A DNA stretch of 28,486 nt, taken from the NCBI GenBank assembly GCA_964534625.1, contig CAZHRF010000042.1, positions 1 to 28,486 on the forward strand. Reading direction: 5' to 3'. Every line of letters starts with the position of its first letter. Positions within the stretch are counted from its first letter, which is position 1. This document shows, one piece after another, positions 1 through 21,164 of the stretch. The stretch is from an uncultured archaeon (lineage in GTDB: Archaea; Asgardarchaeota; Heimdallarchaeia; Heimdallarchaeales; Heimdallarchaeaceae). Made by a program: the position numbers and the translations under genes. The notes under the pieces are model-generated. The model was given only the letters and a program-made list of their open reading frames with translations, was not told the origin of the DNA and ran no database searches.

Positions 1-124
1 AATTTCAACCGTAAACATTTCTGTAATGCCTTCAATTTCAACCGTAAACATTTCTGTAATGCCTTCAATTTCAACCGTAAACATTTCTGTAATGCCTTCA
101 ATTTCAACCGTAAACATTTCTGTA
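1..124. repeat. Perfect 33-bp tandem repeat, about 3.8 copies visible (truncated by window edge)
   Basis: Unit aatttcaaccgtaaacatttctgtaatgccttc starts at 1, 34, 67 and 100 (last partial); no spacers. Confidence 0.97.
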
Positions 125-315: not shown

Positions 316-464
316 TTTCTCCTCATTAAAAAATGCGATGGTACGTTGAGGAGAAACCGACCAAAAGGTTTTGTCGGAATAATTCTACCTCAATGTATGA
401 GTTTAAGTACGAACTCATGTTCACTTAGTGAACATCGTTCACTAAACCAACATCGTTAACACTA
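316..464. repeat. Cluster of inverted and short direct repeats in an intergenic region
   Basis: tttctcctca (316-325)/tgaggagaaa (347-356); atgagtt (397-403)/aactcat (412-418); palindrome atgttcact-t-agtgaacat (417-435); aacatcgtt at 431 and 449 (18-bp spacing). Confidence 0.7.
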
Positions 465-569
465 TAAAGATAAGAAGTTACGCTAATCATTTGATAAAAC
501 ATAAAAAACCAACTTAACTTCAAAATATTAAGACCACTAGTAGTTAAAAAAAGGCATTGAAAGGAACTT

Positions 570-2111
570 TTACTCCTTAGCATTATCTTCTTCAGAGCTT
601 TCTTTTGTTACTTCTTTTACCTCATTTACTCTAATAAGGAAGAGAAAAGCAAAGATCATACAGATTAAAACAAATGGGAACATCACAACGTATTGTTGTG
701 GACCCAGATATTGGAAAAAATCTAAATTGAGACCTAGTAGCATAGGAGCCATTGTATAAGCAAATTGATTAAATGTATAGTATACCCCTGTATATGTGCC
801 TACTTCTCCTTTAGGTGCAAGTGACCATACTAGAGGAAAACTGTTTACAATAAAGCACATCCAAGGCATAGAAATAAAGGCAAGGTTAACCATTACCAAG
901 TAATCTTTAGTGGTTAAAACTTGTTCTGGAACATCCACAGGGTTATAAATAGCGGGAACCAAAAAGACAACCAAAACAAACGTAGAAAGGATAACTCCTA
1001 CTATACCAACTACTGCTGCTTTCTTTCGACCAATCTTTTGCCCTAACATTCCCCAGAAATAGGCAGAAAGTATCATTGGAACTGAATAAGCCAAAAAGAG
1101 AGTTCCAGTTACGGTATCTGCTTTGCCCATATAAGATTGAGCGAATGTAGAAAAAAACGCCTCTACTGCAGCAAAACCCGTATAAGCAAACATAACTGTA
1201 AACAGCATATTCCTAAAACTTTTGTCATCAGAACGGAAAATATCACCAATTTTTTTCAATACTGAAACTGATTCTTCAACACATTCTTTATTTTTTGAAA
1301 CTTTTTCAGATACACGTAAACTTATTGGGTCTAAGGTAATTTCGCTTGTGTTTAACTGGAAAATTTTGTCTCCTGTAGGTGTTTCTTTGACCAAGACAAT
1401 TTGTATGATTACTACTGCTATCATTAAAGCAGATACTATTACGAAACTAATAATATTAAACATTTGATTTTGAACTTCCATACCCTCTATTATTACATAT
1501 TCTTTTATTCCAAAACCTGTTACAATCATAGGAATAGTAAAAGCTAACACTCCACCCATGTTGGCAGTAAATTGTTGTATAGCACTTGCTTTAGACTGCA
1601 ATTTATCTGGTGTATAATCCGGTAAAATAGCAATTGAAACTGAACGATATACCGCCATTGCTAAATCAAAACATAAGATAATTAAAACCAATCCGGCCAA
1701 TGTTTGCATTAGAGGGATAGTAGTAAAGAAGAAAGCAGCTAAGGTAGTTCCTAAAACAATGTAAGGCATCCTTCGCCCATATTTACTACAAGTTCTATCT
1801 GATAAATTGCCAAAAAAAGGTTGAAGAATTACGGCCACTAGGTTATCTAATGCCAAAATAACACCTTTAATGGTTTGTTTGGTACGAATAGATCCCATTG
1901 GCAACAAAATATCATCTAATAATCGAGGCACTTTAAAATTAAAATAAGCCCAAGCCAATAACACAGTAAAAAAACTCAAGGAAATGAATATAGTTCTTTT
2001 AGTGTCTAACTTATCCGGATCGTTAGGAGCCATTCTAGGTTCAAATTTATTTAACCTAGGTGTATTTTCAGAACTCATATCATGGTATAATAGGTAACTC
2101 TTTAAAAGCAT
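570..2111 (-). CDS. MFS sugar/glycoside transporter (GPH/SLC45/MalT-like); candidate SQ or SQ-glycerol importer
   Basis: About 12 hydrophobic segments; MFS motif QPFFGNLSDRTCSKYGRRMPY. Lies 13 bp downstream of the GH31 gene on the same strand. True start may be ATG at 2078. Confidence 0.85.
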   Translation of the reverse strand: MLLKSYLLYHDMSSENTPRLNKFEPRMAPNDPDKLDTKRTIFISLSFFTVLLAWAYFNFKVPRLLDDILLPMGSIRTKQTIKGVILALDNLVAVILQPFFGNLSDRTCSKYGRRMPYIVLGTTLAAFFFTTIPLMQTLAGLVLIILCFDLAMAVYRSVSIAILPDYTPDKLQSKASAIQQFTANMGGVLAFTIPMIVTGFGIKEYVIIEGMEVQNQMFNIISFVIVSALMIAVVIIQIVLVKETPTGDKIFQLNTSEITLDPISLRVSEKVSKNKECVEESVSVLKKIGDIFRSDDKSFRNMLFTVMFAYTGFAAVEAFFSTFAQSYMGKADTVTGTLFLAYSVPMILSAYFWGMLGQKIGRKKAAVVGIVGVILSTFVLVVFLVPAIYNPVDVPEQVLTTKDYLVMVNLAFISMPWMCFIVNSFPLVWSLAPKGEVGTYTGVYYTFNQFAYTMAPMLLGLNLDFFQYLGPQQYVVMFPFVLICMIFAFLFLIRVNEVKEVTKESSEEDNAKE

Positions 2112-2124
2112 TTCTCGATTTGTT

Positions 2125-4146
2125 TTATATTTTAGTCTCTTTTATAGATTCAAAAAGTTCTAACCATTTTTTACTTGCATTTTTTCGATAAAAAACAGGA
2201 GGTTGTCCTATGGGAGCTTTAACTTCTACCCATCCTTGTTCATATTCTTTGCTTGTCCAGAGATGTATCCACTGATCTTCAGGAAGATATATTTTTCTTT
2301 TATTACGCTTTTTATTAATTATGGGAGCAACTAATAACTCTCTGCCTAACATATATTGATATTTCATTGAATGTAAATTTTTATCATTTTCATAATGTAT
2401 ATAACAAGCTCTAAATGGTGGAATGCCAGTTTCAGAATATTCTGTCACTAACGACTTTAAATAAGTCTTTAACTTCACATGAACTCTTGTCATCTTTGCT
2501 AGATGATTAAGTGTTTCTTCATCACTATCAAACTGCCAGTTATCATCAGGTCTATTGCCTTCATGTGTTCTCATTACCATGGTAAAAGCAGCAAACTCCA
2601 CCCATCTCATAAAAACTTCTTTCGATCTTTTGAACGGTCCAACTGTGGTATAGCCCCCAATATCAAAATGATAATTGCCTATTCCACAGATTCCCAAAGA
2701 GATACCAGCAGGTATACAAGAAGCTAATCCATCATGCTTACTGAATGTAACCAATTGGTCACCTGCCCAAATAAGTTGACTGTGTTGGGATGTCGATGAA
2801 TAACCTGCTCTGCTAAAGAATACTACATCATTTAATTTTTCTGCTTCTTTTAGTGCTTCTTTGTTTATTCTAGCCCATTCAACTGGATATCTATTATGAA
2901 AAGTTTCAGCACTTTCACCCGAATATAGTACAGCATCAGTAGGCAAATACTCGCCATAATCAGCCATCCACCCATCTAAACCCACTTTTATCAGATTCTC
3001 TTTTATTACTTGTTTGATCCAGTTCTCTGTTTCAGGATTAGTTATATCTAGTATTACAGCAGGAAAAGTTGTTGTTACAACAGGATAATCTTCACCATTG
3101 CAGTTTTTGACAAGTAATTCTTTTTTTGAGGCTTCTTTGTAAAGCTCACCTTCAATAGCCAAAAAACAATTAATATAGCCTAGAAACTTAATTCCTTTTT
3201 CATGTAGTTCAGCTATATAGCCAGGTAAATCAGGATATAACTTAGGGGCATAAATCCAATCCCAAAAAAGCTGTCGACCGAAAGCAGTTTCTCGTTTCCC
3301 TTCCCAATCCTGACACCAAACAGCAGATACTGGTAATCCATGTTCTTTAGCTGTTTGTAATTTTTTATTGACTACTTCTTTCCCTCCTTGTAGGCCTAAT
3401 ATTATTCCATCATACATCCAATCGGGTAATGGTGACTGTTTACCTAAGAGTGTCGCTAAAGCACCTATTGTCTTAGAAGCTGTTTCGTATTTGCCTATTA
3501 TAATTTCAGGGATATCCCAAAAGTATAATTCTGTTACTTCTTTTTGTCTAAAATTAAATATACTATATGCTGTTGTTTCTACATGACAGAAATAATTTTT
3601 TGACGATACTAACGTTGGTTGCGGATAGTAAGTAGTGTAATGATCTCCTCCTACGCCATCATATAGTAGATTAGCCAAGAAAGTAAACCATAAAGGATCA
3701 CCCCTACCTACCCCTTGTTCTTGGCACCACAAAGGAACTTTTTTACCTTGAAGATTCACTTCAGAAAATTGTTCCCCACAGCCATAAAACGCCTCATGTT
3801 CATTTGAGACGAATCTAAACCAGCTTCGGTTAAAACTTAAATCTGTTTGGGGTTTAATTCTTATTTGTCCTTCATTTTCGGTAAAAACAATAGTCAAGTT
3901 TATTTTTTCATCATTTGAAGAGAAATCTATAATCAAATTATTCTCTGATTGATTCTTAATTTTATAATTTATAAGAGGAATTTCTTCTTCTATTTTTTCT
4001 TTAATTTTGTAAATTCCATGATTTAATTGAAACTTACCTTCTGCCTTCCCTATCTTTAAAAATGGCGTTTTATATGTGTGATGCATTAATATATAACCAT
4101 CAATAGCTAGTTTAAATCCTTCTTCAAAGGTTTTAATTTCCATCAT
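2125..4146 (-). CDS. yihQ: GH31 alpha-glycosidase of the YihQ/sulfoquinovosidase subfamily
   Basis: YGCGEQFS..NL.GK.VPLWCQEQGVGR, GGDHYTTYYPQPT, LGLQGG, WCQDW.G.R.T.FG, nucleophile GWMADYGEYLP, acid/base WAGDQ, DIGGYTT and MRTHEGNRP all match YihQ as recalled. Confidence 0.88.
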   Translation of the reverse strand: MMEIKTFEEGFKLAIDGYILMHHTYKTPFLKIGKAEGKFQLNHGIYKIKEKIEEEIPLINYKIKNQSENNLIIDFSSNDEKINLTIVFTENEGQIRIKPQTDLSFNRSWFRFVSNEHEAFYGCGEQFSEVNLQGKKVPLWCQEQGVGRGDPLWFTFLANLLYDGVGGDHYTTYYPQPTLVSSKNYFCHVETTAYSIFNFRQKEVTELYFWDIPEIIIGKYETASKTIGALATLLGKQSPLPDWMYDGIILGLQGGKEVVNKKLQTAKEHGLPVSAVWCQDWEGKRETAFGRQLFWDWIYAPKLYPDLPGYIAELHEKGIKFLGYINCFLAIEGELYKEASKKELLVKNCNGEDYPVVTTTFPAVILDITNPETENWIKQVIKENLIKVGLDGWMADYGEYLPTDAVLYSGESAETFHNRYPVEWARINKEALKEAEKLNDVVFFSRAGYSSTSQHSQLIWAGDQLVTFSKHDGLASCIPAGISLGICGIGNYHFDIGGYTTVGPFKRSKEVFMRWVEFAAFTMVMRTHEGNRPDDNWQFDSDEETLNHLAKMTRVHVKLKTYLKSLVTEYSETGIPPFRACYIHYENDKNLHSMKYQYMLGRELLVAPIINKKRNKRKIYLPEDQWIHLWTSKEYEQGWVEVKAPIGQPPVFYRKNASKKWLELFESIKETKI

Positions 4147-4226
4147 GGTGTCATTAATCCTTTTAGGGTATTACTTAATCAGTTTTACTATACGCAAATA
4201 AGAAAATGAAAAATTTTATCATATTC

Positions 4227-4835
4227 CTATTTTTCTATAGGTTCTGGTCTTAACCACCAAAGATAATCATCCTCACCGAGATCAGCACTTCGAAGTTTAA
4301 AGCTAAATTCTGTCGTTTTTTTGTTATCGATACCATAGTAGACTTCAATTACACATGTAGAATTTTCGTCAATGGGGACAATATTATCCTCAAGTGCATC
4401 AATAGAAATTATGTTTACATTGGTGGATTCACCTGGATCAACTACAATGGGATAGGTGGGACGAACAAAACTATATCCTTTTTCTTGAAACTTATCCCAG
4501 TCAATTAATTCAATATCTTCATAGTTCAATTCATGAAGATGAATTTTACCTAAAATATCAATGTACTTGATCTCACTCATATCTGATTTCCTAAACCCAA
4601 CTTTTATTTGATAAATCATGCCTTTTTTTGCCCCTTCATTATGAAATAAGAGGGGAAGACAGAGTAAAATTGATTCTTGATATTTAGAATGAATAACCCC
4701 ATATTCAACAAATTTATTCGGAAAAATTTTAGCGGATCTATTGGCCATATACCAGTTATATGCCGAAAGAATAGTTCCAAAAGCAGCTGGTATAAAACTT
4801 ACAATGTCTAATTCGTAACCAAATATATTTACCAT
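4227..4835 (-). CDS. Hypothetical protein with an N-terminal membrane anchor
   Basis: 202-aa ORF; hydrophobic IVSFIPAAFGTILSAYNW, then a beta-rich soluble region; family not recognised. Confidence 0.7.
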   Translation of the reverse strand: MVNIFGYELDIVSFIPAAFGTILSAYNWYMANRSAKIFPNKFVEYGVIHSKYQESILLCLPLLFHNEGAKKGMIYQIKVGFRKSDMSEIKYIDILGKIHLHELNYEDIELIDWDKFQEKGYSFVRPTYPIVVDPGESTNVNIISIDALEDNIVPIDENSTCVIEVYYGIDNKKTTEFSFKLRSADLGEDDYLWWLRPEPIEK

Positions 4836-5088
4836 GACCTAAGATTATCCTTTTCCTGTAATAAATATTCCTAGATTAAAACCAAATATAATATTTAATA
4901 AGTAAAATCAATTAGTAATAAATCTTTGCTTTCATCCCCTTGAATAGTAAAAAAGAGGATCACTGAAGAAAGGATAAACTTTAAGCTAATGTGCGTACTG
5001 GATAAGAAAAAAAAATATTTCAACAGATAACAAGTCTTTTATTGTTTTGTCCCCTAAAAAGTTAGTAAACAAAAATTGTGAGTTAAAA

Positions 5089-5607
5089 ATGATCAATATC
5101 AAAGAGCTTCTTTTTTACCCAACAAGAGTAGCATTAGTCAGTACAAAACACCAAAAGATGGAATCAATCATTACAATATCATTAATAGGAATCCCAAATT
5201 TTGAACCTCCAATGATTTCTATTAGTTTAAAACCCCACAGGTTTTCTTATTCTTTAATTAAACAAGCACAAGAATTTGTAGTTAATATACCCACGGAAGA
5301 AATGATTGAGACTGTGATATTTTGTGGAAAGCATTCTGGAAAAGATTATGACAAATGGAAAAGAAATAAGTTAACAAGAGGCAGAAGTCAATCTGTAGAG
5401 ACACCCTTTATTGAAGAGTGTCCTATTAATATTGAATGTAAATTGAAACAAATAATTGAGTTAGGTTCTCACCATCTTATTATTGGTAAAGTAACCAACA
5501 TAAGAAATATTCAAAAGTTAAAAAAGAATGAATACCCTCCAGTTTTGACATACATCAAAGGCAAGTATGTCATCTATGAAGGAAACTCGATAAAATCCGT
5601 CATATAA
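5089..5607 (+). CDS. Flavin reductase-like (flavoredoxin/DIM6-NTAB family) FMN-binding split-barrel protein
   Basis: EPPMISISL...RFSYSLI....EFVVNIP, CG.HSG...DK, TPFIEECPINIECK, GSHHLIIGKV. ATG 5089 preferred over TTG 5047. Confidence 0.88.
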   Translation: MINIKELLFYPTRVALVSTKHQKMESIITISLIGIPNFEPPMISISLKPHRFSYSLIKQAQEFVVNIPTEEMIETVIFCGKHSGKDYDKWKRNKLTRGRSQSVETPFIEECPINIECKLKQIIELGSHHLIIGKVTNIRNIQKLKKNEYPPVLTYIKGKYVIYEGNSIKSVI

Positions 5608-5669
5608 GATCTTATGCTTTTGGGGTTACTTATATGAATAAAGAGCCTTCTTTCTTGCTGTTTGGTAAT

Positions 5670-6986
5670 TCATTCTACAATTTTCCATTCTTGTAGTTTT
5701 GCAAATATTTTAAATGGTTCAATAAATTCCCCATAAACTACGCTAAGATGATGAGCTATACCATTTTCAATTATCTTGTCAAGAACATTTTTCACTCCTT
5801 CAGAAAAAACGGCTTTCATATATGTACCTTTAAGATCTTTAGTCATGGGGACAGCTTTCGCCCTCTGTAGAAATATTCGATATTCTCCACAAGCATAATC
5901 AATTCTAGCAATAGATAGCGGTCCTTCTTTCATAACAAAATCAGCTGTGACACCCTTTCCTCCAGCAAAATAGCTATCTAATGAGCGTATACATTTTCTA
6001 TCATGTAAATTACATGGTGCCACTCCGCAATGCCATAGAAGAGCAAAATCTTCTTTTAAATCTACTTGCGAGAAATCCGCCAAAAAAGGTGTTTCACCGC
6101 CTATAGCTTGATGTGCTAGCATTGATAGACTCCCCAGCATATCACCCTCACAAGTTAATATTTTACCTTCTGATTGGAGAATAGACATAGCAGCACAAGG
6201 TGAAATGCCAAACATTGAGGCAAATTCTGGCCAGCATCTAACAGCTATTGAATTTAAATTGTTAGCTTCCATGAAATTATCAAATTTAACTACTAGGGTT
6301 GCTACTTTACTTAGCTGTTTTGCATCAATATCAGACAAGTCAAATAAGTCTCTAATTTGTTCTTTACGTGCAGACAACTTTTCTTGCTCAATTTCTTGCT
6401 CAAATACTTCTTGCAACTCATAATGATCAACGAGAATACCCAATTGTTCATACAGACTCAATTCATCAACATCTAAATTAAAAAAACCCTGGGCTCTATA
6501 ACCAATAAGACCCACATGAGCTATGAAAAACTTTTTCTTAATTCTAAGTGCATCAAGCCAATTTTCATCTATAGTATTACCTATTACAGTAGAATAATTT
6601 TTTATTCCTGCCTTATATAGATTTGAAGCATTCAGGTTTACACCACAAATAGAATTTAGGCGTATCTTCCCTCCATCATATGGAAGCTCATTTAACCCCC
6701 AAAGTAAAATAGGTCGATCAACCACTTTATTGAGTTCTAAAACCAGATGACCTAAAGCAAAGGTTCCGCTTATAACTACCAAACCATCAACATGTTGTTC
6801 CCGCATTTTTTTTGCTGCCTTTTGAGCATCTGCAATGTCTATAATCAGTTTGGGAATACATATCCATTGAACTTGTTCTATTTTATGCAATTTTTTTTGT
6901 AACTGAATGTAAATCTCTTCTGCTGCCTTGTAATCAAAAGTTTTGCGTGCTAAACATACAACCCCAATAATCAGCTCTTGTTTCAT
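5670..6986 (-). CDS. L-fucose/L-arabinose isomerase-fold sugar isomerase; probable sulfoquinovose isomerase (SqvD/SftI-like)
   Basis: AVRCWPEF, CEGD (metal/catalytic), WHCGVAP and C-terminal GIAHH of the FucI/AraA fold; N-terminal ARKTFD and RLNS.CG recalled from SqvD-type proteins. Context with yihQ and the SF-transaldolase supports the SQ role. Confidence 0.75.
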   Translation of the reverse strand: MKQELIIGVVCLARKTFDYKAAEEIYIQLQKKLHKIEQVQWICIPKLIIDIADAQKAAKKMREQHVDGLVVISGTFALGHLVLELNKVVDRPILLWGLNELPYDGGKIRLNSICGVNLNASNLYKAGIKNYSTVIGNTIDENWLDALRIKKKFFIAHVGLIGYRAQGFFNLDVDELSLYEQLGILVDHYELQEVFEQEIEQEKLSARKEQIRDLFDLSDIDAKQLSKVATLVVKFDNFMEANNLNSIAVRCWPEFASMFGISPCAAMSILQSEGKILTCEGDMLGSLSMLAHQAIGGETPFLADFSQVDLKEDFALLWHCGVAPCNLHDRKCIRSLDSYFAGGKGVTADFVMKEGPLSIARIDYACGEYRIFLQRAKAVPMTKDLKGTYMKAVFSEGVKNVLDKIIENGIAHHLSVVYGEFIEPFKIFAKLQEWKIVE

Positions 6987-7044
6987 CTTTCTCTACTCTT
7001 TCAACAATTTGTTATCAATAAAAATAAACTTTTGCTAGAAATTA

Positions 7045-8458
7045 TGGGTAATACGTTGCGAAAAAATGCGAAAAGTGAGGGGCTTAAAAAGGATCAAGCA
7101 TAATACGCTAGATGGCGAAAGTACCCAGAACAGAGCAGATGGAAGTGGGAGAAAACAAAGCACTCGGGAAGCTTTGCCATCGGACAAAGAATCTCTATAA
7201 TAGAGCAAACTACGTCATAAAACACACATGGAAGGAGGAAGGGAAATTGGTAGGATACAACACCTTGGCGAGAGAGTTAAAGACAGAAGAGTGCTATAAA
7301 GTGCTGCCAGCGCAAACCAGCCAACAGACACTCAAACTCCTAGGGAGGAACTGGAAAAGTTTCTTTCGAGCGTTAAAAGAGTACAGAAAAGAGCCAAAAA
7401 AGTTTCTAGGATGTCCTCGTCCTCCTGCCTATAAAGCTAAGAAGGGGCAAACTGTTGCTGTTTTTACCAATCAACAGGTGAACATTCGCAATGGATGGAT
7501 AGTCTTTCCCCGGAAGGCTAATTTCAAGATACAAACACGTTTATCTCCACAAACGGATATCAGAGAAGTACGAATCATTCCCCGCGGAGTAGGGTACACG
7601 GTGGAACTAGTCTACAAGAAAACCCTGAAAAAGAAGCCCAAGACGGACTCACAGCGTAAAGCTGCTATTGACCTGGGATACATTAACCTCATGACCTTAG
7701 TGGACAATATGGGTGGACAACCGATTATTGTCAAGGATCAAGGGAAAGGAGTAAAATCAGTTATTCAATATTATATGAAAAGAATGAAACACCTTCAGCA
7801 AGTATACGAACACCAGCAACACAAGAGAAAGAACAAGAACAACAAGAAACCCCATTTGAGCTATGGGCAAGCCTATAAACGACTAAGGAACAAAAAACGG
7901 CTAAAAGTCCGTGATTGTCTCCATAAACTTACAACGTTTATTATACAGGTCTGTGAAACGCGAGAGATAGAAAAACTCATCATCGGCTATAATCCCACCT
8001 GGAAACAGAACCTCCGTTTACGCAAAAAGACCACCCAACTCTTCGTCCAGGTGCCCTTTGAACGAATTATTGCCTTGCTCCAGTACAAGGGAGAAGATAG
8101 GGGAATTACCGTTGTCTTGCAAGAAGAGAGGTATACGTCCAAATGTAGTTTCTTGGATAATGAAGAACCCAAAAAGCGAGAGAATTATGTAGGAAAACGC
8201 TCTACCCGTGGAACGTTTGTTGCTGCTTGTGGCTATACGCTCAATGCTGATGTGAATGCTGCTTATAATATTTTACTCAAAAGCGACCCCTATGCTGTTC
8301 CTTTGCGTACAGCTGCGGATGTAGGAGGGTATGTGACGTACCCCGTTAGTTGGTCCCTGGTCCATTCGTGGTCTCAGTTCCCAAGCTAGTAAAATTCGAT
8401 CCGATGTCGCACATTGTCGCATCGAATATGTCATGCCTAACTTAAGTACTATAAGTTA
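7045..8458 (+). mobile_element. Solo tnpB insertion element (IS200/IS605/IS607 superfamily, IS1341-like, no tnpA); boundaries approximate
   Basis: Visibly more GC-rich than flanks; contains only tnpB; paired TGCGA motifs at the left end and inverted TCGCA pair at the right end; hairpins at 8394-8427 and 8438-8458. Confidence 0.7.
7112..8389 (+). CDS. tnpB: RNA-guided endonuclease TnpB
   Basis: N-terminal KNLYNRANY, PAQTSQQTL, W.SFF, PRPPAYK; RuvC-I AAIDLG, RuvC-II region IIGYNPTWKQ...QEERYTSKCSFLD, RuvC-III NADVNAAYNI. Confidence 0.93.
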   Translation: MAKVPRTEQMEVGENKALGKLCHRTKNLYNRANYVIKHTWKEEGKLVGYNTLARELKTEECYKVLPAQTSQQTLKLLGRNWKSFFRALKEYRKEPKKFLGCPRPPAYKAKKGQTVAVFTNQQVNIRNGWIVFPRKANFKIQTRLSPQTDIREVRIIPRGVGYTVELVYKKTLKKKPKTDSQRKAAIDLGYINLMTLVDNMGGQPIIVKDQGKGVKSVIQYYMKRMKHLQQVYEHQQHKRKNKNNKKPHLSYGQAYKRLRNKKRLKVRDCLHKLTTFIIQVCETREIEKLIIGYNPTWKQNLRLRKKTTQLFVQVPFERIIALLQYKGEDRGITVVLQEERYTSKCSFLDNEEPKKRENYVGKRSTRGTFVAACGYTLNADVNAAYNILLKSDPYAVPLRTAADVGGYVTYPVSWSLVHSWSQFPS

Positions 8459-8544
8459 ATTGGTGATAGATTCTTTCTTTTCTCTTGCTTGCAAATACTT
8501 AGGTTTATTAATTTAGTTACTTCAATCTCATCAACAAAGGTCAG

Positions 8545-9324
8545 GTGAAGAAAGTGGCTATACTTAATATCAATAATCTGTACAAATATTTTGGTCATGT
8601 CAGAGCTGTCGATGGTGTGTCATTCAATATTAATGAAGGAGAGTTTTTTGGCTTATTGGGCCCTAATGGTGCAGGTAAGACGACTACAGTTAAAATGATT
8701 TTAGGCTTATTAGAACCCGACCAAGGCACCATTGAAGTATTCAATATGGATCCTTTCCTTCATGAATTAGAAGTTAAGCATGCAGTTGGTTATGTTTCAG
8801 AAGAGCCTTTAGTTTACGAAAGTCTTACTGTACAAGAACTGTTTAATTTTATTGCTTCAATTAGAGGTTTTTCTAGTGAGAAAGAACAACGCTTTGTTAA
8901 CTTGCTTCAAAGTTTAAATGCTTTACAATATTATGACAAAGCAATTGCTACGCTCTCTAGGGGGAACAAACAGAAGATACAATTAATAGCTTCTTTACTT
9001 CATGAACCTAAATTATTAATTTTAGATGAACCTTTAGCGGGATTAGATGCGAAATCTGTACGTGTCTTCAAAGAGATCCTTAACATGCATATCGAAAATG
9101 GAGGATCAATTCTTTTCTCCACCCACATAATGGCAGTAGCCCAAGAGATTTGTGATCGTATAGCCATCATCAATGAAGGTAAAATTGTTGCCATAGGTAC
9201 TGTTGAAGAGTTATCTGAAAAAGCCAATAAAATTGGAGCTTCTCTTGAAGATATTTTCCTAAAACTTACAGAGCAAGATGAATCAGTCCATCAAATTATT
9301 ACCCAACTTAGGGCGAGTCTTTGA
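8545..9324 (+). CDS. ABC-2-type transporter ATP-binding protein
   Basis: Walker A GPNGAGKT, signature LSRGNKQK, Walker B LLILDEP, H-loop STH. Confidence 0.95.
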   Translation: MKKVAILNINNLYKYFGHVRAVDGVSFNINEGEFFGLLGPNGAGKTTTVKMILGLLEPDQGTIEVFNMDPFLHELEVKHAVGYVSEEPLVYESLTVQELFNFIASIRGFSSEKEQRFVNLLQSLNALQYYDKAIATLSRGNKQKIQLIASLLHEPKLLILDEPLAGLDAKSVRVFKEILNMHIENGGSILFSTHIMAVAQEICDRIAIINEGKIVAIGTVEELSEKANKIGASLEDIFLKLTEQDESVHQIITQLRASL

Positions 9325-9340
9325 TTTCTAGGTGGTTTAA

Positions 9341-11020
9341 ATGAATATCAGGCAACTATTGAAAATTTCAAAAACAGTATATCATGAATCCATGCTTCAA
9401 AGTCAGTTAAAAATGATGGGGAGTAATAAGGAGCGATATTTAGAAAAACTTAGTAAAAAAAATGATTTCAAAACTCAAGCGGGATTTCAAAAAATTATGA
9501 TTGGTATATATTATCTTATATTGGTAATGCTTCCAGTTCAAAACTTTAACCAAATCAAAAAAGCCATTTCTGCTGACATCTCTATGTCTTGGATTGTTTT
9601 TTCTTCAGTCTTGACCTTAAGCGTATTTCTTATCTTACAATTTATTCTTCTGCTAACATTTACAATTATGTTTTCTTCAAGTTTGATGTCTGGTGACCAA
9701 TTTAAGTGGTTAGCTACTTTACCTCTTCGTAAACGGTCTGTTCAAAAAATAGCTTTTCTTACATTTTTTAGAGGAATAGATATTCAAATGATTGGTTTCA
9801 TTTTCACTTTACCTTTAGCTGTGGCTATTATTACTAAGAATATTCTTTTTACAAGCATTGGTTTACTCATTTCTATTGCAAATGCGCTTTTGTATCTCAG
9901 TTTATTAATCATTTTAGGACAAAAAATGTCTAAGATACTTGAACACTATGCAGTAAATGATCGAAAAACGAATCTAATCCGAATGGTTTCAATGCTAACT
10001 TATATACTAAGTACGCTATTCATTTTCTTGCTAATAAATTTGGCTTCTCAGAATATTACCAAAGTATATAGCAACCAATTTCTTCAACAAGATGTGTTAG
10101 GAATCATTAATCCCGTACTTAGTATCGTACCGTTTCCTTTCGCCCTTTGTTACATTCTGACCTTCATATCCATTGGACAAATAAACGTTACCTTCTCTTT
10201 CATTGGTGCTATTATAGGTTGTTTGGTATATTTTCTTATTACGTACTTTGTTGTAAAAAAAGCTTTTTCCACTCTTGGAACTATTACATCGAGTGAAATT
10301 GAATATTATCAGAAGGAGGAGACAATGGAAGTTCAATCTGCAGATGTTACTATTGATTCAACATCTCCCATTATAGCTTTTATAAAAAAAGATCTCCATA
10401 TGGCAACAAGAGACATTCAAACAATGTCACTATTTTTATTTCCTATCTTATTTCCTTTACTTTCTATAATCAGTTCTGGTGGAACATTTTTAACAGATAC
10501 AACTTTAACTTTATTGTTAACTTCCAATCTACCATTTATTACCTTAGGCAGTCTTATGCTGGTTCAAGGAATATCAAATATGGAAAAATCCGGAGCTACT
10601 ATAAATGCGTCTTTACCTATTTCAGGAAGAGATCAAATCAAGGCAAAACTTCCTTATTTTTTTATTATTCTACCAATAGCTTTGTTTATACCTCTTCTTT
10701 TTCTAATTAATCGACCAAATTTTTTTAGAATTTTGATAACGACATTAATAATCCTCTGTATTCCTCCTCTAACCGGATTAGCTGGATTATTCTTGAAAAT
10801 CAAACTGTTTGGCAAACTACGCCACAAATACGTCCTTGAAGACGTAAATGATGACCTTAAAGTAATCAAGTGGATAGCTATAATAGTTTTTACTCTTTTT
10901 CTGGTAGGTGTGTTTATTTTCCTTTCTACACTTAACTGGTATTCCGTACTTATCGGAGAAGGAATACTAGCACTCTTAGTTTTACTTATATTCAATCTAA
11001 TGTTTCCAAAGAAAAAATAG
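9341..11020 (+). CDS. ABC-2-type exporter permease (about 12-14 TM)
   Basis: Multi-pass membrane ORF 16 bp after the ATPase, with GGTGG SD; duplicated LATLPL/NASLPI motifs and FIKKDLHMATRD are typical of ABC-2 permeases. Confidence 0.8.
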   Translation: MNIRQLLKISKTVYHESMLQSQLKMMGSNKERYLEKLSKKNDFKTQAGFQKIMIGIYYLILVMLPVQNFNQIKKAISADISMSWIVFSSVLTLSVFLILQFILLLTFTIMFSSSLMSGDQFKWLATLPLRKRSVQKIAFLTFFRGIDIQMIGFIFTLPLAVAIITKNILFTSIGLLISIANALLYLSLLIILGQKMSKILEHYAVNDRKTNLIRMVSMLTYILSTLFIFLLINLASQNITKVYSNQFLQQDVLGIINPVLSIVPFPFALCYILTFISIGQINVTFSFIGAIIGCLVYFLITYFVVKKAFSTLGTITSSEIEYYQKEETMEVQSADVTIDSTSPIIAFIKKDLHMATRDIQTMSLFLFPILFPLLSIISSGGTFLTDTTLTLLLTSNLPFITLGSLMLVQGISNMEKSGATINASLPISGRDQIKAKLPYFFIILPIALFIPLLFLINRPNFFRILITTLIILCIPPLTGLAGLFLKIKLFGKLRHKYVLEDVNDDLKVIKWIAIIVFTLFLVGVFIFLSTLNWYSVLIGEGILALLVLLIFNLMFPKKK

Positions 11021-11209
11021 TAAATAGGTCAACAAAACGCTAAATCTCAATTCAACAAATAGTAATGAGTTAAAACATCTATACGCCTTATTATAACTAA
11101 ATTACTTAAAGAGTTTAGAGAAGATTTATATAGAACGACTAGTTGAACCAAATTAAATAAAGCAATATCAAAAATATTTCTTTGTTTCAAAATAATTAAA
11201 CATAAACTA

Positions 11210-14200
11210 ATGGTGCAAAAATTGCAAATTAAAAATAATATTACGAATAAAAAAATACTTTTAATAATGTTTAGTCTTGTTCTTCTTTTAAGTCCTCTCG
11301 CTGTAATTGCAGTTAGACCAGATGGAATACCACCTGTAGTAAATATCACATCTCCAGCTGATGGTGCAACTGTACAGGGATTAGTTACTATTACTTTTAC
11401 AGCGGAAGATCAACAAGATGATTTAAAAGAATACGGTTTGAAAATCGACGGAACAACAGTTTCAACTTATTCTTTCAGTTATGATTGGGATACAACAACA
11501 TTTGTTGATGGAGATCACGTCATTGAGGCTTATGCTCACGACAGAACAACAGTAGGTACAGACCAGATAACGGTGACAGTTTCTAATGGTGGGCTCATAG
11601 ATAATCCTCCCACAGTAACAATAACTACACCAAATGCAGGTTCAATAGTTTCAGGAACTCAAACCATTACAATAGATGTTTCAGATGATATTGACACATT
11701 AGTACCAGATATCTATATAGACGGAATCTATATAGCTACAACTAATAGTTATGAGTGGGACACAACAACCTATTCAAATGATACGCATACAATTTATGCA
11801 GAAGTAACAGATAGTTCATCACAAACAGCTTCAGATCAGATATCCGTCACAGTAGATAATTCGGGAGATAGCACTACTCAAGAAGTATTCAAATTAATGT
11901 GTTTCAATATTAAAGAGTCTGGCGAATCTACGGATTATCCCGATTGGAAAGAAGTGGTAAAAGAAGAGAACGCTGATATCCTCATGTTCATTGAAACAGG
12001 TTATTGGGATGACAATGGAAATGAAAAACTTAATCTATATGTAGAAGAATTTAACAGTTATTTTATTGATGAGACACCTTATGAAGGCTATACTACGCAA
12101 GATATAAGTTATTCGACAAGTGGAGCAGCTATAATGACACGTTATCCTGTTTTAGATTACACCCAAATTACTCATGTTCCTCTTGACGATGGGACAAGTT
12201 ATGATGTCACTCATGATTTCTTTGATGTAAAAGTCAACATAGGCGGTTCTGCTGTTCATATTATTGGTTCTCATCTTAAAGCGATGACAGGAAGCACAAA
12301 TGAACAACGGAGAGAATGGGAACAAGAAGGTATTATCAATTACATGGATAATCTTGGTGATGGTATCCCTATTGCCTATTTGGGTGATCTTAATTCTTTC
12401 AGTCCCGAGGATTATGAATTAAACACGCTTCAATCTGGACTCGGTTATGGTCCACTTAGCATGTTTATTGATCCTTATACTAATCCTGAAACTGGTGAAG
12501 ACTTCAGTCAATATAGTTCTGTGTATCATACATTTACTGACGTATTTAGAACACTAAATCCTTTAGACTTAGGTATTACAAGTCCAGCTTATGATAGCCG
12601 AATAGATTTTATTTATACTAACGAAGAACTAACCGCCTACATCATCAACAGCACTTGTGGCGATACTTCTTCCGCTCTCACAGGATCTGATCATCTTACA
12701 GTAGATGTTTTCATAGCATTAAATAGTGATGGTATTGATTACATCCCCCCTAAAGTTACTATCACAAATCCTGAAAATAATGCCATTGTTAGCGATGTTG
12801 TAGAAATCACTTTTGACGCCTATGACGATGATGCTATTGATTCTCAAAGAATACTCATTGATGGAATCGAAGTCAGTACTTCTACAAGTTACTTGTGGGA
12901 TACAACCGCTTATAACGAAGGATCTCACATTATTAAGGCGGAAGCTACTGATCCTAGTGGTAATATTGGATATGCAGAGCATACTGTTACTGTAGATAAT
13001 GATGGTTTCATTCCTGGTCCTAATTATATTGTGATTAATGAATTTCTGGCAGCCCCATCAACTGTGTATGATGATGAATGGATTGAACTTTGGAATCCAC
13101 TTGATGATGATATTGATATTTCTGGTTGTGTGTTAGATGATCTTATTGATGGAGGAGGAAATCCTTATACTATCCCTAGTGGTACTATCATGGCTCCAAA
13201 TAGTTTTATGCTATTTTATGGTACCGAAACAGGATTTGCGCTCAATAATGCTGGTGATGACGTAAACTTTATTGATACGGATGGAATAACGATTTTAGAT
13301 TCACACACCTATACTTCGACCAAATATGATGTCTCATGGGGTCGAGAATTTGACGGTTCCGAAAATTGGATAGAATTTACAGAACCCACACCAGGTGCGT
13401 CTAATGGCGAACAGAGTGGTGATACTACGCCTCCAGCTCAAGTTACAGGCTTAACTGCCACAACAATTAGTACTTCTCAAATTGATTTAATGTGGGATTC
13501 TAATACCGAACCAGATTTAGATTACTATAAAATTTATCGTGATGGTCTTTTCTTGATTTCTGTGAGTTCTGAATCTTATAGTGATACAGGTTTAGCAGCT
13601 GAAACTACTTATAGTTATACTGTTTCTGCAGTAGACACACATGGTAATGAAGGTACTAAATCGACTAGTGCAAGTGCCACAACTGACGCAGGGTCAACAT
13701 CTAGTCCAAGTCAGATAGTCATCAACGAGTTTTTACCTGATCCTTATTCTCTCTATAGCGAGGAATGGATTGAATTATACAATCCAACAAGTGATGATAT
13801 TGACTTATCTGGATGTGTTTTAGATGATATTACTTCAGGTGGAACATCACCTTATGTTATTCCTGATGGAACTATTATAGCTGCTGGAGGTTTTTTGGTT
13901 TTCTATCAAAGTGTTACTAAAATTGGTCTAAATAACGACGGAGACACAGTAAATTTAATCGATAAGGATGGTATAACTATTATTGATAGTTACTCTTATT
14001 CCCATTCTTCTGATGATGTCAGTTATGGTCGAGAAACTGACGGTTCCGAAAATTGGACAGAATTTACTGAACCTACACCAGGCTCTTCAAATAATGATAC
14101 AACCACTACTAATAGTTATATTCATGTTGATAGTATTACGGTAAGTCATAACTCTAAAGGTGCTTCTGGAAAATATGATATATATATCGAAGTCCTTGTT

Positions 14201-14437
14201 TATGATGAATCCGGTAATCCCGTCTCTAGTGTTTCTGTAACAATAGAATTACAAACGCCTAGTGGATCAATTCTAACTCAGACAGTTATGACTGATTCAA
14301 ATGGTATTGCAATAGCTACTTTTAGTGATATTAGAGAAACAGGTACCTATGTAGCTACCGTTACGGATTTATCAGCGACCAATTATATCTATGACGAAAC
14401 AGCCAATATAGAAACGAGTGAGCAATATACAATCTGA
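11210..14437 (+). CDS. Secreted multidomain nuclease/phosphoesterase: signal peptide, 2x Ig-like, EEP (DNase I-like) domain, Ig-like, lamin-tail domain, FN3, lamin-tail domain, Ig-like
   Basis: EEP motifs FNIK, ADILMFIE, GSHLKA, LGDLNS, RIDFIY, GSDHL; PP.V.IT.P...WDTT Ig repeats; IVINEFL...EWIEL.NP...LNN.GD.V...PTPG LTD repeats; PAQVTGL..WD..Y.IYR..Y.YTVSAVD FN3. Confidence 0.88.
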   Translation: MVQKLQIKNNITNKKILLIMFSLVLLLSPLAVIAVRPDGIPPVVNITSPADGATVQGLVTITFTAEDQQDDLKEYGLKIDGTTVSTYSFSYDWDTTTFVDGDHVIEAYAHDRTTVGTDQITVTVSNGGLIDNPPTVTITTPNAGSIVSGTQTITIDVSDDIDTLVPDIYIDGIYIATTNSYEWDTTTYSNDTHTIYAEVTDSSSQTASDQISVTVDNSGDSTTQEVFKLMCFNIKESGESTDYPDWKEVVKEENADILMFIETGYWDDNGNEKLNLYVEEFNSYFIDETPYEGYTTQDISYSTSGAAIMTRYPVLDYTQITHVPLDDGTSYDVTHDFFDVKVNIGGSAVHIIGSHLKAMTGSTNEQRREWEQEGIINYMDNLGDGIPIAYLGDLNSFSPEDYELNTLQSGLGYGPLSMFIDPYTNPETGEDFSQYSSVYHTFTDVFRTLNPLDLGITSPAYDSRIDFIYTNEELTAYIINSTCGDTSSALTGSDHLTVDVFIALNSDGIDYIPPKVTITNPENNAIVSDVVEITFDAYDDDAIDSQRILIDGIEVSTSTSYLWDTTAYNEGSHIIKAEATDPSGNIGYAEHTVTVDNDGFIPGPNYIVINEFLAAPSTVYDDEWIELWNPLDDDIDISGCVLDDLIDGGGNPYTIPSGTIMAPNSFMLFYGTETGFALNNAGDDVNFIDTDGITILDSHTYTSTKYDVSWGREFDGSENWIEFTEPTPGASNGEQSGDTTPPAQVTGLTATTISTSQIDLMWDSNTEPDLDYYKIYRDGLFLISVSSESYSDTGLAAETTYSYTVSAVDTHGNEGTKSTSASATTDAGSTSSPSQIVINEFLPDPYSLYSEEWIELYNPTSDDIDLSGCVLDDITSGGTSPYVIPDGTIIAAGGFLVFYQSVTKIGLNNDGDTVNLIDKDGITIIDSYSYSHSSDDVSYGRETDGSENWTEFTEPTPGSSNNDTTTTNSYIHVDSITVSHNSKGASGKYDIYIEVLVYDESGNPVSSVSVTIELQTPSGSILTQTVMTDSNGIAIATFSDIRETGTYVATVTDLSATNYIYDETANIETSEQYTI

Positions 14438-14643
14438 AAAAAATTAAATCGTTTTTTTCCCTTATTTTTTAATTGCGTATTTTTCTTTTCTCTCTTTTTT
14501 GATTCACGTTTTCGTCACTTTTAAAGGATTTAGTGTGCTTTAATTATCTTAGAATTAATAATAAGGGGTTGAATAGAAAGAAAAAAGATATCTCGAATTA
14601 TTATTAGATCGTATCACTAAAAGAAATTACGGGGAGATGATTT

Positions 14644-15306
14644 CTATTCTTTTTTTATTTGATTCCAAGCATCTTGAAAAATCTTCAATCCACGGTCAGT
14701 AAATGGATGCTCAAAACTAGCCTTATATACATCAAAACCCGCGGTCACTATATCTGAACCCAATTCTGCTGCTTGAGCTATTTGTTTACCATTTCTTAGA
14801 GCTGCAGTTATTATTTCTGTTTTAAAACCATAAAGGCTATAGATTTGCGTGATTTGATATAGAAAATTTGTGCAATCTACTCCACTAGCTTCTTGCCAAC
14901 CAATAAATGGAGAAACATATTTTGCGCCTATTCGTCCAGCTTGGATTGCTTGACTTGTTGAAAAAACAAGAGTTACATTTACAGCTACTCCATCTTCAGT
15001 TAATTTTTTGGCAGCAGTTAACCCTTTTTCGGTACAAGGAATCTTAATAACAAAATTCTCTGACATAGCTGCCAATTCTTTGGCTTCTTTTATCATATTA
15101 GGAACATCTAGTTTATAAGGATTGATTTCTACAGATATAGGAAAATCAATACCTTCAAACTCTGAAGCTATTTCTTGTATCACAGGAATAAAGGGCTTAC
15201 CAGATTTCATAATGTGTTTTGGATTACTAGTTATGCCTTCTATCCCCCAATTTTCATAAGCATATTTGATATCTTCCAATATTGCTGAATCTAAAAAATA
15301 TTTCAT
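14644..15306 (-). CDS. Transaldolase (TalC/FSA family), sulfofructose-transaldolase (SqvA/SftT)-like
   Basis: MKYFLDSAILE.I.YAYENW, SVEINP (Glu acid/base), VIKIP (Schiff-base Lys), SPFIGW (Trp where ordinary TalC has the phosphate-binding Arg), AALRNGKQI. Closely resembles Bacillus SF-transaldolase as recalled. Start at 15306 follows a GAGGT SD. Confidence 0.85.
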   Translation of the reverse strand: MKYFLDSAILEDIKYAYENWGIEGITSNPKHIMKSGKPFIPVIQEIASEFEGIDFPISVEINPYKLDVPNMIKEAKELAAMSENFVIKIPCTEKGLTAAKKLTEDGVAVNVTLVFSTSQAIQAGRIGAKYVSPFIGWQEASGVDCTNFLYQITQIYSLYGFKTEIITAALRNGKQIAQAAELGSDIVTAGFDVYKASFEHPFTDRGLKIFQDAWNQIKKE

Positions 15307-15517
15307 TTTTATTATAACCTCAAAAACCTTTATCTCCAATGCTATTTGAAGATTTTGTTAATAAAACGACAATGTTAAAAATGGAAAAGTATTTTTTCAG
15401 CAACTTAAATGACCAAACTCAAGGACGAGGTTTTCAAGAAGACGTTCACATAAATATATTTATTCTCTTTTTGTTTACAATCTAGAGATTACTATTACCT
15501 TGTGATAGTCTTGAGTA

Positions 15518-15739
15518 CTAATTTTTGCAATACATTACTATATCACATTTAATAATTTCACCCGCATTGTATTTATCCAAAATTTTTTCTAAATTGTCAG
15601 CACAATAATAGTCATTAATGCAGGTTAAAACACTGATCTCATTGATAGGAAACCATTCTTCACCATCTATACTACATTTGACTGTTCCATAATTGGGTTC
15701 GGTTTCGGAAGTATTAGAAACATCAGTATTATTATTCAT
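15518..15739 (-). CDS. Small acidic Cys-containing hypothetical protein (73 aa)
   Basis: ATG at 15739 with TTTATATA 25-32 bp upstream (15764-15771), a leaderless arrangement; 5 Cys. Confidence 0.6.
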   Translation of the reverse strand: MNNNTDVSNTSETEPNYGTVKCSIDGEEWFPINEISVLTCINDYYCADNLEKILDKYNAGEIIKCDIVMYCKN

Positions 15740-15999
15740 TGCAATAATAAGAAAAGTTTTGAGTATATAAATAGACAAAATATCTACATGTGCACAATAT
15801 GTTAGCAAGCTAATATGATTAATTAAAAGAAAACGAGAAATGAGCGTATTTTGATAGAAGATGGCGACAAAAAAAGTAGAGTGTTTTATAGCTGCATTAG
15901 ATAATCATATGGCATTAATTTGCTAGGATTAAGTGAAAAATAAACAAAAATTTAGATGAAGATTTTTTCAACTATTTCCTTTCGTTTAAATGTAATAAT

Positions 16000-17394
16000 T
16001 CAAACCATTCGCTTATAATCCAAGAGTTCATCAACTTCTTTTTCTGTTAGTCCTAAATCCGATTCCATTGCCACCTCTTTTATTGTTTTTCCTGTCTCAT
16101 ATGCCTTCATAGCTATTTTAGAAGCCTTATCATACCCTATTTTTTGTGTGAGATTAGTTACAAGCATTAAACTTCTTGACATATCTTGTTCAATTTTTTC
16201 CTTATTTACACCTAATCCTTCTAGGAGATTTTTGGTAAATGATCGTATCCCATTTGACAACAGAGTAAGCGATTCAAGCAGATTATGTATCATCAATGGT
16301 TTTGTCACATTTAAATCTAACATACTACCATATCCTTCTGCCATAGACACTGTTATGTCATTTCCTAATACCGACAATGCAACTTGTATCAACATTTCAC
16401 TTTGAGTAGGATTAATTTTACCTGGCATTATAGATGAACCTGGTTCATTGGCTGGTAACTGTAACTCTGCTAGTCCCGCCCTAGGCCCACTGCCCAACAA
16501 TCGGATATCATTTGCCATTTTCATTAAAGAGAGAGCCAATGTTTTGAGATTTGAGTGTATATTAACTACTACATTGTGGGAAGCGATACCCTCTGCTTTT
16601 AATGGATTCGATGAAAAGTCTATATTTGTTATTATATTAAGATAATGAATAGCTTTGTCTGCGAAATCGTGAGGTGCATTTATACCCGTTCCTACAGCTG
16701 TACCTCCCAGAGACAACTGTTTAAGTTCTTGTAATGAATTTAACAATCTTTTTTTATTATCTTCTAATTGTTTCTTATATACTTCAAATTCAAGAGAAAG
16801 TGGGATAGGAACAGCATCTTGTAAATGCGTCCTACCGATTTTAATAATATCTTGGAATTGAGCTATTTTTTGATTCAATATCCCTATGATCAAATCAATA
16901 TTTGGTAGTAGGTTTTTTTTGATCTCTTTTACAATAGTCACATGCATGGCTGTGGGTATAATGTCATTGCTTGATTGAGCTTTATTCACGTGATCATTTG
17001 GATGTATGGGATATTTTTCACCCTTTTTATGCCCCAATATTTCATTTGCTCGATTAGCAATCACTTCATTCATGTTCATGTTTGTTTGCGTACCTGACCC
17101 TGTTTGATATATATCTATTGGGAACTGATCAAAATATTTTCCTTCATCTAATATTTCATCTATTGCGAGTTGCATTGCTCGTTTTTTTGTATCGTCAATT
17201 AAACCTAATTCATTGTTTGCCAACAAACAAGCTTTTTTTACCTGTGCTAAAGAAAGAATAAAAGAAAAGGGTAATGTCCTTCCGCTTATTTTAAAGTTAT
17301 TTATAGCTCTTTGTGTTGTGGTTCCCCAGTAAGCATTAGAGGGTATTTTTACTTCTCCAAGCAAATCTTTTTCTATTCTATATTCTTCGCTCAT
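16000..17394 (-). CDS. fumC: Class II fumarate hydratase
   Basis: QTGSGTQTNMNMNEV, HPNDHVN.AQSSND, KIGRTHLQDAVP, signature GSSIMPGKINP. Confidence 0.93.
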   Translation of the reverse strand: MSEEYRIEKDLLGEVKIPSNAYWGTTTQRAINNFKISGRTLPFSFILSLAQVKKACLLANNELGLIDDTKKRAMQLAIDEILDEGKYFDQFPIDIYQTGSGTQTNMNMNEVIANRANEILGHKKGEKYPIHPNDHVNKAQSSNDIIPTAMHVTIVKEIKKNLLPNIDLIIGILNQKIAQFQDIIKIGRTHLQDAVPIPLSLEFEVYKKQLEDNKKRLLNSLQELKQLSLGGTAVGTGINAPHDFADKAIHYLNIITNIDFSSNPLKAEGIASHNVVVNIHSNLKTLALSLMKMANDIRLLGSGPRAGLAELQLPANEPGSSIMPGKINPTQSEMLIQVALSVLGNDITVSMAEGYGSMLDLNVTKPLMIHNLLESLTLLSNGIRSFTKNLLEGLGVNKEKIEQDMSRSLMLVTNLTQKIGYDKASKIAMKAYETGKTIKEVAMESDLGLTEKEVDELLDYKRMV

Positions 17395-18152
17395 TATTTT
17401 TCACGTTTATGTTCCGTTCTTATTTTGTGAATTGCGGTTCCGGGTCTAACACCTTTGGGACAAACTCGATTACATGCGAATAGTTTTTGGCATGATGGAA
17501 CTGCATCCTCTTCCCAAGCCCTCTGTATTTTTTCAGATCGTTTTTCATTTGAAAAACGGGTATCTAAAATAAACCTATAGACTTTTGCAAGTGCTGCTGG
17601 GCCCAGATAATTTTTATCCTCTTTATTAACGGGACACGTCCAGCAAAGACCACAGAGGATACAATAAACAAGATGTTCTATAGATCTCGCTTCTTCGGGT
17701 TTTTGTTTTGATTCTGGAGAAGTATCATTCCACTCACGGGAAAAATAAGGTTGAACTTCTTTGTAAAAGTTCCAAAAGGGGCTCATATCTACAACCAGAT
17801 CTTTTATCACTGGCATATTAGGTAACGGTTCAATTAAAATCTCATTATCTTCATCCCACTCACTTACATCCCCAAAAGTTATTTCAGGTAGTTTTGGTAC
17901 TGTTTGTGTTTTTACTACCGTTATTTGTGTTCTGCAAGCTAATTGAGGATATTTATCTACCGTTACACTACATGAACCACAAATAGCCCCTCTACAAGCA
18001 TATCTAAATGCTAATGTAGAATCAAGATGATCTTGAATATAAAAAAGTGCATCAAGTATTGTCATTCCTTTCCTAATAGGTATTTCATATTTTTCATATT
18101 TTGGTTCTTCATTTGGTTTTTTTCTATAAACTAAAAATTTCTGCTTCTCCAT
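17394..18152 (-). CDS. sdhB: Succinate dehydrogenase/fumarate reductase iron-sulfur subunit
   Basis: CRGAICGSC...C (2Fe-2S), CILCGLCWTCP, CQKLFACNRVCP, VIKDLVVD; 1-bp stop/start overlaps with both neighbours. Confidence 0.93.
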   Translation of the reverse strand: MEKQKFLVYRKKPNEEPKYEKYEIPIRKGMTILDALFYIQDHLDSTLAFRYACRGAICGSCSVTVDKYPQLACRTQITVVKTQTVPKLPEITFGDVSEWDEDNEILIEPLPNMPVIKDLVVDMSPFWNFYKEVQPYFSREWNDTSPESKQKPEEARSIEHLVYCILCGLCWTCPVNKEDKNYLGPAALAKVYRFILDTRFSNEKRSEKIQRAWEEDAVPSCQKLFACNRVCPKGVRPGTAIHKIRTEHKREK

Positions 18153-21150: not shown

Positions 21151-21164
21151 TATAAAAAAAACAT

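Follow-up and report, generated by a model that had tools for sequence, protein, structure and literature searches.

We found that a 28,486-nucleotide stretch of Asgard archaeal DNA (the window; contig CAZHRF010000042.1) contains a genuine, interrupted copy of the bacterial sulfo-transaldolase (sulfo-TAL) module in an Asgard-wide variant. On sequence comparison, this module probably serves the breakdown of sulfoquinovose (SQ), was inherited or exchanged within the Asgard archaea, and is split here by insertions. Sulfo-TAL catabolism of SQ had been proposed in an earlier note made from the letters alone, and enzyme matches, conserved gene order, co-occurrence, and trees now support it. We infer SQ as the substrate, short of certainty, because the sulfoquinovosidase (SQase) lacks Arg301 and the isomerase subfamily is divergent. 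SQ, a sulfur sugar plentiful in the membranes of algae and plants, ranks with the most abundant organosulfur compounds.

Bacterial examples of the route include Priestia aryabhattai SOS1 (SftGITD), P. megaterium DSM 1804 (SqvCDA and SlaB), and Eubacterium rectale (PMC7491151, PMC9594981, PMC11968277). In the reconstituted P. aryabhattai route, SQ is isomerized to sulfofructose (SF), and transaldol transfer to glyceraldehyde 3-phosphate (GAP) gives fructose-6-phosphate (F6P) and sulfolactaldehyde (SLA) (PMC7491151). As in Priestia and E. rectale, the window encodes a GH31 SQase, a FucI-fold isomerase, an SF-type transaldolase (TAL), and an MFS-type transporter. Unlike in those bacteria, the host is an archaeon, the isomerase is only 27% identical to SftI, the YihQ-type SQase carries R301Q and the TAL R30K, the operon is interrupted, and the window module comes without linked SftD/SftR, DUF4867, TauE exporter, or regulator. 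According to a 2026 review, no sulfoglycolysis pathway has been characterized in archaea (PMC12890257), and our literature searches found no report of Asgard SQ degradation, in line with what the earlier note had said of this lineage. The pathway is already known in bacteria; dozens of other Asgard genomes carry the set intact, and degradation of SQ by archaea is a prediction.

Enzymes of the module and their substrate

All four module open reading frames (ORFs) are present on the minus strand, intact and full length, within the 15 kb in which they had been described (Table 1). The transaldolase scored 303 bits against the SF transaldolase of Bacillus megaterium (BmSF-TAL) versus 173 bits against the next TalC. 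Its likeness to the sulfo-TAL enzymes of Bacillaceae is close, with 60% identity to a Metabacillus-like SqvA from an SftI cluster. In a quick tree it fell inside the SqvA clade with 100% SH-aLRT support, apart from TalC and FSA, and ordinary Asgard TalC proteins, about 40% identical to the SF type, formed a separate clade. The earlier note had called it TalC-type from its SPFIGW and AALR motifs and had named grouping with ordinary TalC as a result that would count against the proposal; both motifs are present, and the protein groups with the SF transaldolases instead, so that its class is SqvA/SftT and an ordinary TalC identity is rejected. W137 and R171 are kept, and R30 of Bacillus is K30 here; an Arg-Trp-Arg sulfonate triad of SF transaldolase was reportedly described by Snow in 2023. 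Residue 30 is Lys in 112 and Arg in 8 of 120 homologues, and the two alternate among close relatives. The window protein has Trp at the site of an Arg in ordinary TalC. The Asp-Lys-Glu catalytic set, with the Phe of the transaldolase and not the FSA type, is retained (D6, E60, K88, and F134); Lys89 is the Schiff-base residue of SF transaldolase (PMC12890257). Searches of plasmid sequences for an SqvA reference yielded none.

This transaldolase is the only one found in the host genome, the module proteins carry generic database names, and SftI also interconverts F6P and glucose-6-phosphate (PMC7491151). Such observations would suit an ordinary sugar metabolism made up of an alpha-glucosidase, a pentose/fucose isomerase, and a housekeeping transaldolase. 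A housekeeping role is argued against because no transketolase was found in the host genome, and hence no non-oxidative pentose phosphate pathway that the enzyme could serve. The separate clade of ordinary Asgard TalC and the inactivity of characterized GH31_13 enzymes on pNP-glucoside and pNP-xyloside (PMC12780224) point the same way, and we regard ordinary sugar metabolism as highly improbable.

The GH31 protein, earlier described as YihQ-type, scored 865 bits against the YihQ-type model NF007746 (cut-off, 553), and its best Protein Data Bank (PDB) matches are the SQases 8R56, 5AED, 6PNR, and 5OHY (540 to 697 bits; next GH31, 153 bits). It is 44% identical to Escherichia coli YihQ. Mapped onto a reference list of SQase active-site residues (10.64898/2026.02.11.705467), its Q253, Q279, W295, D396, D463, Y499, and H528 correspond to E. 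coli Q262, Q288, W304, D405, D472, Y508, and H537. The Asp pair, Q262/Q288, W304, Y508, and H537 are thus shared with E. coli YihQ, A. tumefaciens SQase, and E. rectale SftG; unlike these three GH31_13 SQases, the window enzyme has Gln (Gln292) in place of the sulfonate-binding Arg301 (E. coli numbering). The SQase assignment holds by family model and structures, while the loss of the canonical Arg301 had gone unnoticed. Of the 120 nearest GH31 homologues, about half have Gln at position 301, and so does YihQ of a Desulfurispora sulfo-EMP2-type cluster and of a sulfo-TK-type bacterial cluster. Aligned Asgard GTDB YihQs read Q-W-Y, R-W-F, or Q-W-F.

The AlphaFold model of the isomerase (pLDDT 89.6) matched L-arabinose and L-fucose isomerases in Foldseek at TM scores of 0.74 to 0.87, which agrees with the FucI fold first assigned to it; a profile search against PDB sequences gave no match. 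Its sole NCBIfam match is SftI (NF048012) at 216 bits, while a true SftI member from another locus (L170) scores 820 bits. In the tree it belongs to a separate 438-amino-acid subfamily apart from true SftI (27% identity); it is 58 to 59% identical to isomerases of bacterial sulfo-TK-type clusters and 39 to 43% identical to those of Thermotogota sulfo-TAL/SuyAB clusters. The subfamily occurs in sulfo-sugar clusters among the Asgard and bacterial loci read. Of its reading as an SQ isomerase, the placement in the SqvD/SftI-like group of sulfo-sugar clusters stands, with the correction that this is a divergent subfamily below the SftI cut-off.

The MFS reading of the fourth gene is borne out by its Pfam matches, and homologues (35 to 37% identity) adjoin the operon in three Heimdallarchaeia MAG (metagenome-assembled genome) loci (L115, L117, and L093). 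The window protein may bring in SQ or SQ-glycerol, or it may export the C3 sulfonate.

Table 1. Positions of the module genes and of the genes lying between them
Feature	Position in window	Strand	Basis or remark
MFS/GPH-like sugar transporter	570..2111	-	513 aa; Pfam MFS_1/MFS_2, weak GPH; 13 nt after GH31
YihQ-family (GH31_13) sulfoquinovosidase, Gln variant	2125..4146	-	673 aa; NF007746, PDB SQases, residue map
SqvD/SftI-like aldose-ketose isomerase, AraA/FucI fold	5670..6986	-	438 aa; CWPE, CEGD, WHCG, and HH motifs conserved
SqvA/SftT-type sulfofructose transaldolase	14644..15306	-	220 aa; BmSF-TAL 303 bits; tree
Hypothetical gene of 202 aa (minus strand) and flavin-reductase-like gene (plus strand)	4227..5607	.	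between isomerase and GH31
TnpB, multi-copy IS200/IS605 element (about 7040-8440)	7112..8389	+	NF040570; outside pathway
ABC ATPase and 12TM_1 permease, then 1075-aa secreted EEP/LTD/Big_7/fn3 protein	8545..14437	+	domain searches

Several observations weigh against an SQ module in this genome. The isomerase fails the NF048012 equivalog cut-off of 700 bits, and no assayed member of its subfamily could be identified. The Q/E-RWY sulfonate motif of GH31_13 SQases (PMC12780224) is not intact in the window enzyme (R301Q), and no characterized Gln301 enzyme was found. The module is interrupted and does not form a tight operon here, and neither YihQ, nor the isomerase, nor any TalC-family gene was found in 30 other Heimdallarchaeaceae genomes. 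Orthologues of YihU, SlaB, DUF4867, and the AEC transporter were not found in the 89.8%-complete host genome (for DUF4867, the hidden Markov model [HMM] had no positive control and the tblastn query found no match), nor was an orthologue of the aldehyde:ferredoxin oxidoreductase (AOR) of other Asgard clusters, the best match being 37% identical.

The enzyme variants themselves recur in bacteria. In the part of PMC9594981 that cites Liu 2020, Thermotogota sulfo-TAL variant clusters are given as predicted. Five Thermotogota control loci (L186 to L190) combine SuyAB-, LarA-, and SlaB-like genes with a Gln301 YihQ and a TAL with Lys30 or Arg30; they share these variants and the related isomerase subfamily with the window, at 48 to 54% TAL identity, and differ in having desulfonation genes where the host has no SuyAB or SlaB orthologue. 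The Gln301 and Lys30 variants travel with sulfonate-specific genes, although the control clusters are themselves only predicted, a further point on the negative side. The variants do not refute SQ, because the same ones sit in Thermotogota clusters with sulfolactate lyase. They weaken the case for strict family membership of the SQase and isomerase, and not the claim of like function. The gene order at these loci is TAL-SuyAB-LarA-SlaB-isomerase(-YihQ), nickel racemase included, and the LarA-like nickel racemase is a candidate sulfolactate racemase.

The module differs from the enzymes studied so far in three coordinated ways, namely R301Q, R30K, and its separate isomerase subfamily, and this could instead mean that the same module acts on a related anionic sugar, such as sulfofucose or some other hexose that is C6-sulfonated or sulfated, from, e.g., archaeal or algal glycans, with SQ secondary. 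The complete RWY set occurs in none of the aligned Asgard GTDB YihQs, and five Lokiarchaeia loci have a sulfatase close to the cluster, both of which would fit such a substrate. We nevertheless consider it unlikely, since in bacteria the variants adjoin SuyAB/SlaB-like or sulfoacetaldehyde-reductase-like genes, an indication of a C-sulfonate, close relatives differ in having Arg or Lys at position 30, and the remaining active-site residues are all conserved.

Distribution and origin among Asgard archaea

Among 400 genomes of the phylum, with SF-type TAL called at ≥59% identity, YihQ was found in 55, SqvA-type transaldolase in 38, and the isomerase orthologue in 47. All three occurred together in 33 of the 400, against 0.6 expected under independence, which related genomes do not satisfy; isomerase and YihQ thus accompany the SF-type TAL in 33 of the 38 genomes that have it. 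With the same dependence among kin, the three enzymes lie within 25 kb in 22 genomes, and TAL and YihQ lie within 6.5 kb in 18. Their grouping is not due to chance. Carriers of all three are mostly Lokiarchaeia. An uninterrupted TAL-isomerase-YihQ-MFS order occurs in the Heimdallarchaeia genomes GCA_016927615.1 and G091, and GCA_014730365.1 (Heimdallarchaeia) has the order MFS-TAL-isomerase..YihQ. The host genome co-encodes the core SQase, isomerase, and SF transaldolase, and the window extends the module to the Heimdallarchaeaceae, in whose 30 other genomes it was not found.

In the cultured "Candidatus Lokiarchaeum ossiferum" B35, orthologues of TAL (UYP45182.1, 65% identity) and isomerase (UYP45188.1, 66%) are clustered, and a Gln301 YihQ (UYP46230.1, 50%) is encoded elsewhere. 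Its cluster differs from the window in also containing an AEC transporter and a YihU-like reductase (UYP45183.1, auto-named 3-sulfolactaldehyde reductase), both by automatic annotation only. The presence of the core genes in a culture makes the claim testable. The chances are about even that Loki- and Heimdallarchaeia are widespread, unrecognized primary SQ degraders in sediments, with their own version of the TAL route (Gln-type SQase and new isomerase subfamily) and with some oxidizing SLA by AOR. If active, the module would give about 8% of sampled Asgard species a defined substrate, connect these species with sulfite-respiring partners through sulfonate cross-feeding, and make SQ a selective enrichment substrate.

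Bacterial horizontal transfer had been thought probable. In all three trees (quick/FastTree trees with thin bacterial sampling), the window copies group with Heimdallarchaeia copies among Asgard sequences at 97 to 98% support, and the YihQs sampled from Asgard archaea fall into a single clade (99%). GC content at third codon positions (GC3) of the four module genes is 0.21 to 0.25, against a genome median of 0.24. Every near relative of the transaldolase and isomerase that bears a taxon name is archaeal, and nearly every one is Asgard. Recent direct import from bacteria is rejected on the host-like GC3 and the Heimdallarchaeia grouping; an ancient bacterial origin is plausible, with bacterial sampling in the trees too thin to name a donor. 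Both one old acquisition with many losses and transfer among Asgard lineages fit.

The module could also be a decaying remnant here, functional in other Asgard archaea. Its absence from the 30 family relatives, the splitting of the operon by two insertions, the failure to find a dedicated SLA enzyme in the host genome, and a related Heimdallarchaeia MAG (G090) that keeps YihQ-MFS without TAL and isomerase at the same site would all fit decay. None of the four ORFs is truncated, however, the catalytic residues are intact, and the end branches of TAL and isomerase (0.26 and 0.28) are similar to those of intact Heimdallarchaeia copies, that of GH31 being somewhat longer; intact Heimdallarchaeia operons, too, come without a linked SLA enzyme. 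We therefore think a remnant quite improbable and retain a working SQ module as the preferred reading.

Other loci showed further features. At the G090 site (L191), a molybdopterin-domain gene directly precedes YihQ-MFS and the TAL and isomerase found at the same site in L115 are missing, an apparent clean loss. In some Asgard clusters, molybdopterin oxidoreductase-domain (SorA/MsrP-like) genes run in the same direction as the transaldolase gene (L115:9344-9880 and L168:2588-3637). Sulfatase, GH2, GH3, GH4, and NagB-like genes recur near Lokiarchaeia clusters (L095, L096, L102, L107, and L109), which suggests that these belong to larger glycan-use islands. A YihQ on a 2.9-kb contig of Heimdallarchaeia MAG G083 (L020) nests among Lokiarchaeia sequences on a very short branch, probably through misbinning or recent transfer. 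The closed 4.4-Mb genome G134 has a distant YihQ-like gene (C1:915507-917489, 35%), with SF-type transaldolase and isomerase absent.

Proposed route and fate of sulfolactaldehyde

In the route we propose, the MFS protein would import SQ or SQ-glycerol, the retaining GH31 enzyme (D396/D463) would release SQ, and the metal-dependent isomerase would convert SQ to SF. The transaldolase, through a Schiff base at K88, would release SLA and pass dihydroxyacetone to GAP, giving F6P. This product plausibly re-enters glycolysis via an ADP-dependent sugar kinase and a divergent class II aldolase. Host glycolytic genes include an ADP-dependent sugar kinase (glucokinase or phosphofructokinase), the divergent class II aldolase, a fructose-bisphosphate aldolase/phosphatase, and glycerol kinase. 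The glycolytic aldolase had seemed to be missing in an HMM search, but tblastn located the family's class II aldolase on contig C56.

The earlier note saw no SLA dehydrogenase or reductase and no TauE exporter in the window; genome-wide, too, no dedicated SLA enzyme was found, and several TauE genes are present, all unlinked to the module. Unlinked candidates for handling SLA are six AORs, three full aldehyde dehydrogenases (ALDHs), and two iron-containing alcohol dehydrogenases (Fe-ADHs), and a generic host ALDH is 30% identical to a SlaB-like protein. SLA would probably be taken by one of these general enzymes and, with low confidence, most likely be oxidized to sulfolactate and excreted. 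The sulfur would probably be left to cross-feeders, because no SuyAB (sulfolactate lyase) was found in the host genome.

In other Asgard clusters, TAL is followed downstream, immediately or at a short distance, either by a YihU-like reductase (at seven loci) or by an AOR and its Fe-S subunit (at seven). The AOR and its 4Fe-4S subunit follow SF-type TAL at L103:2055-4378, L106:8409-10716, L147, L150, L154, L165, and L171, and four cluster AORs compared are 69 to 74% identical to one another. The Lokiarchaeia-type cluster AOR is a candidate for ferredoxin-linked SLA oxidation; our literature searches found no report of AOR acting on SLA.

Host, contig, and intervening genes

The window is the entire contig C42 of a 3.37-Mb host MAG (completeness 89.8%, contamination 2.6%). 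The host was confirmed as an Asgard archaeon, as had been thought probable, and belongs to the Heimdallarchaeaceae; the contig fits the MAG, which has an archaeal 16S rRNA gene and the same GTDB family as a closed genome with a protein named "Candidatus Heimdallarchaeum endolithica." Two contig backbone genes, fumarase and the gene at 25426-26523, have their best matches in Heimdallarchaeaceae, and contig composition is inside the range of the host genome, TnpB excepted. A bacterial or misbinned contig is ruled out by the archaeal 16S gene, the composition, the backbone-gene matches, and a fumarase with no second copy in the genome.

Independent Logan assemblies match window positions 441-7071 and 8407-25306 at 100% identity, breaking at the multi-copy TnpB element. 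The Logan contigs stop at 7071 and 8407, so it is the MAG assembly that joins the two halves; the gene order and strand that result are exactly the conserved ones, which supports the 15-kb linkage.

Direct coupling within the module is confined to GH31 and the MFS gene that follows it after a 13-nt gap. Of the six unrelated genes inside the module span, five are plus-strand genes. The isomerase-transaldolase interval consists of 7.6 kb of plus-strand genes for TnpB, an ABC exporter, and a 1075-amino-acid secreted nuclease-like protein. GC3 of TnpB is 0.47, against the genome median of 0.24. Its ORF is intact, with near-identical fragments on four further contigs (C4, C19, C105, and C120; 98 to 99.5% identity), which suggests recent activity of the IS200/IS605 element. 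The secreted protein (11210-14437) has Big_7, EEP nuclease/phosphatase, two lamin-tail, and fn3 domains and is possibly an extracellular nuclease. No homologue of the ABC exporter genes, the secreted EEP/LTD protein, the 202-amino-acid hypothetical gene, or the flavin-reductase-like gene was found at the other Asgard loci compared. A role of the flavin reductase as a sulfo-SMO component is not supported; it is missing from the other compared clusters, and no monooxygenase is linked.

A sigma-70 promoter scan of the window gave chance-level results, the sigma-70 model not covering archaeal promoters. A 33-bp tandem repeat (window 1-124) lies inside an ORF that runs off the end of the contig, and contig C15, which ends in the same repeat, may be the neighbor of C42 there. 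Directly upstream of the transaldolase, on the same strand, are genes for fumarase C and the A and B subunits of succinate dehydrogenase/fumarate reductase (window 16000-19861).

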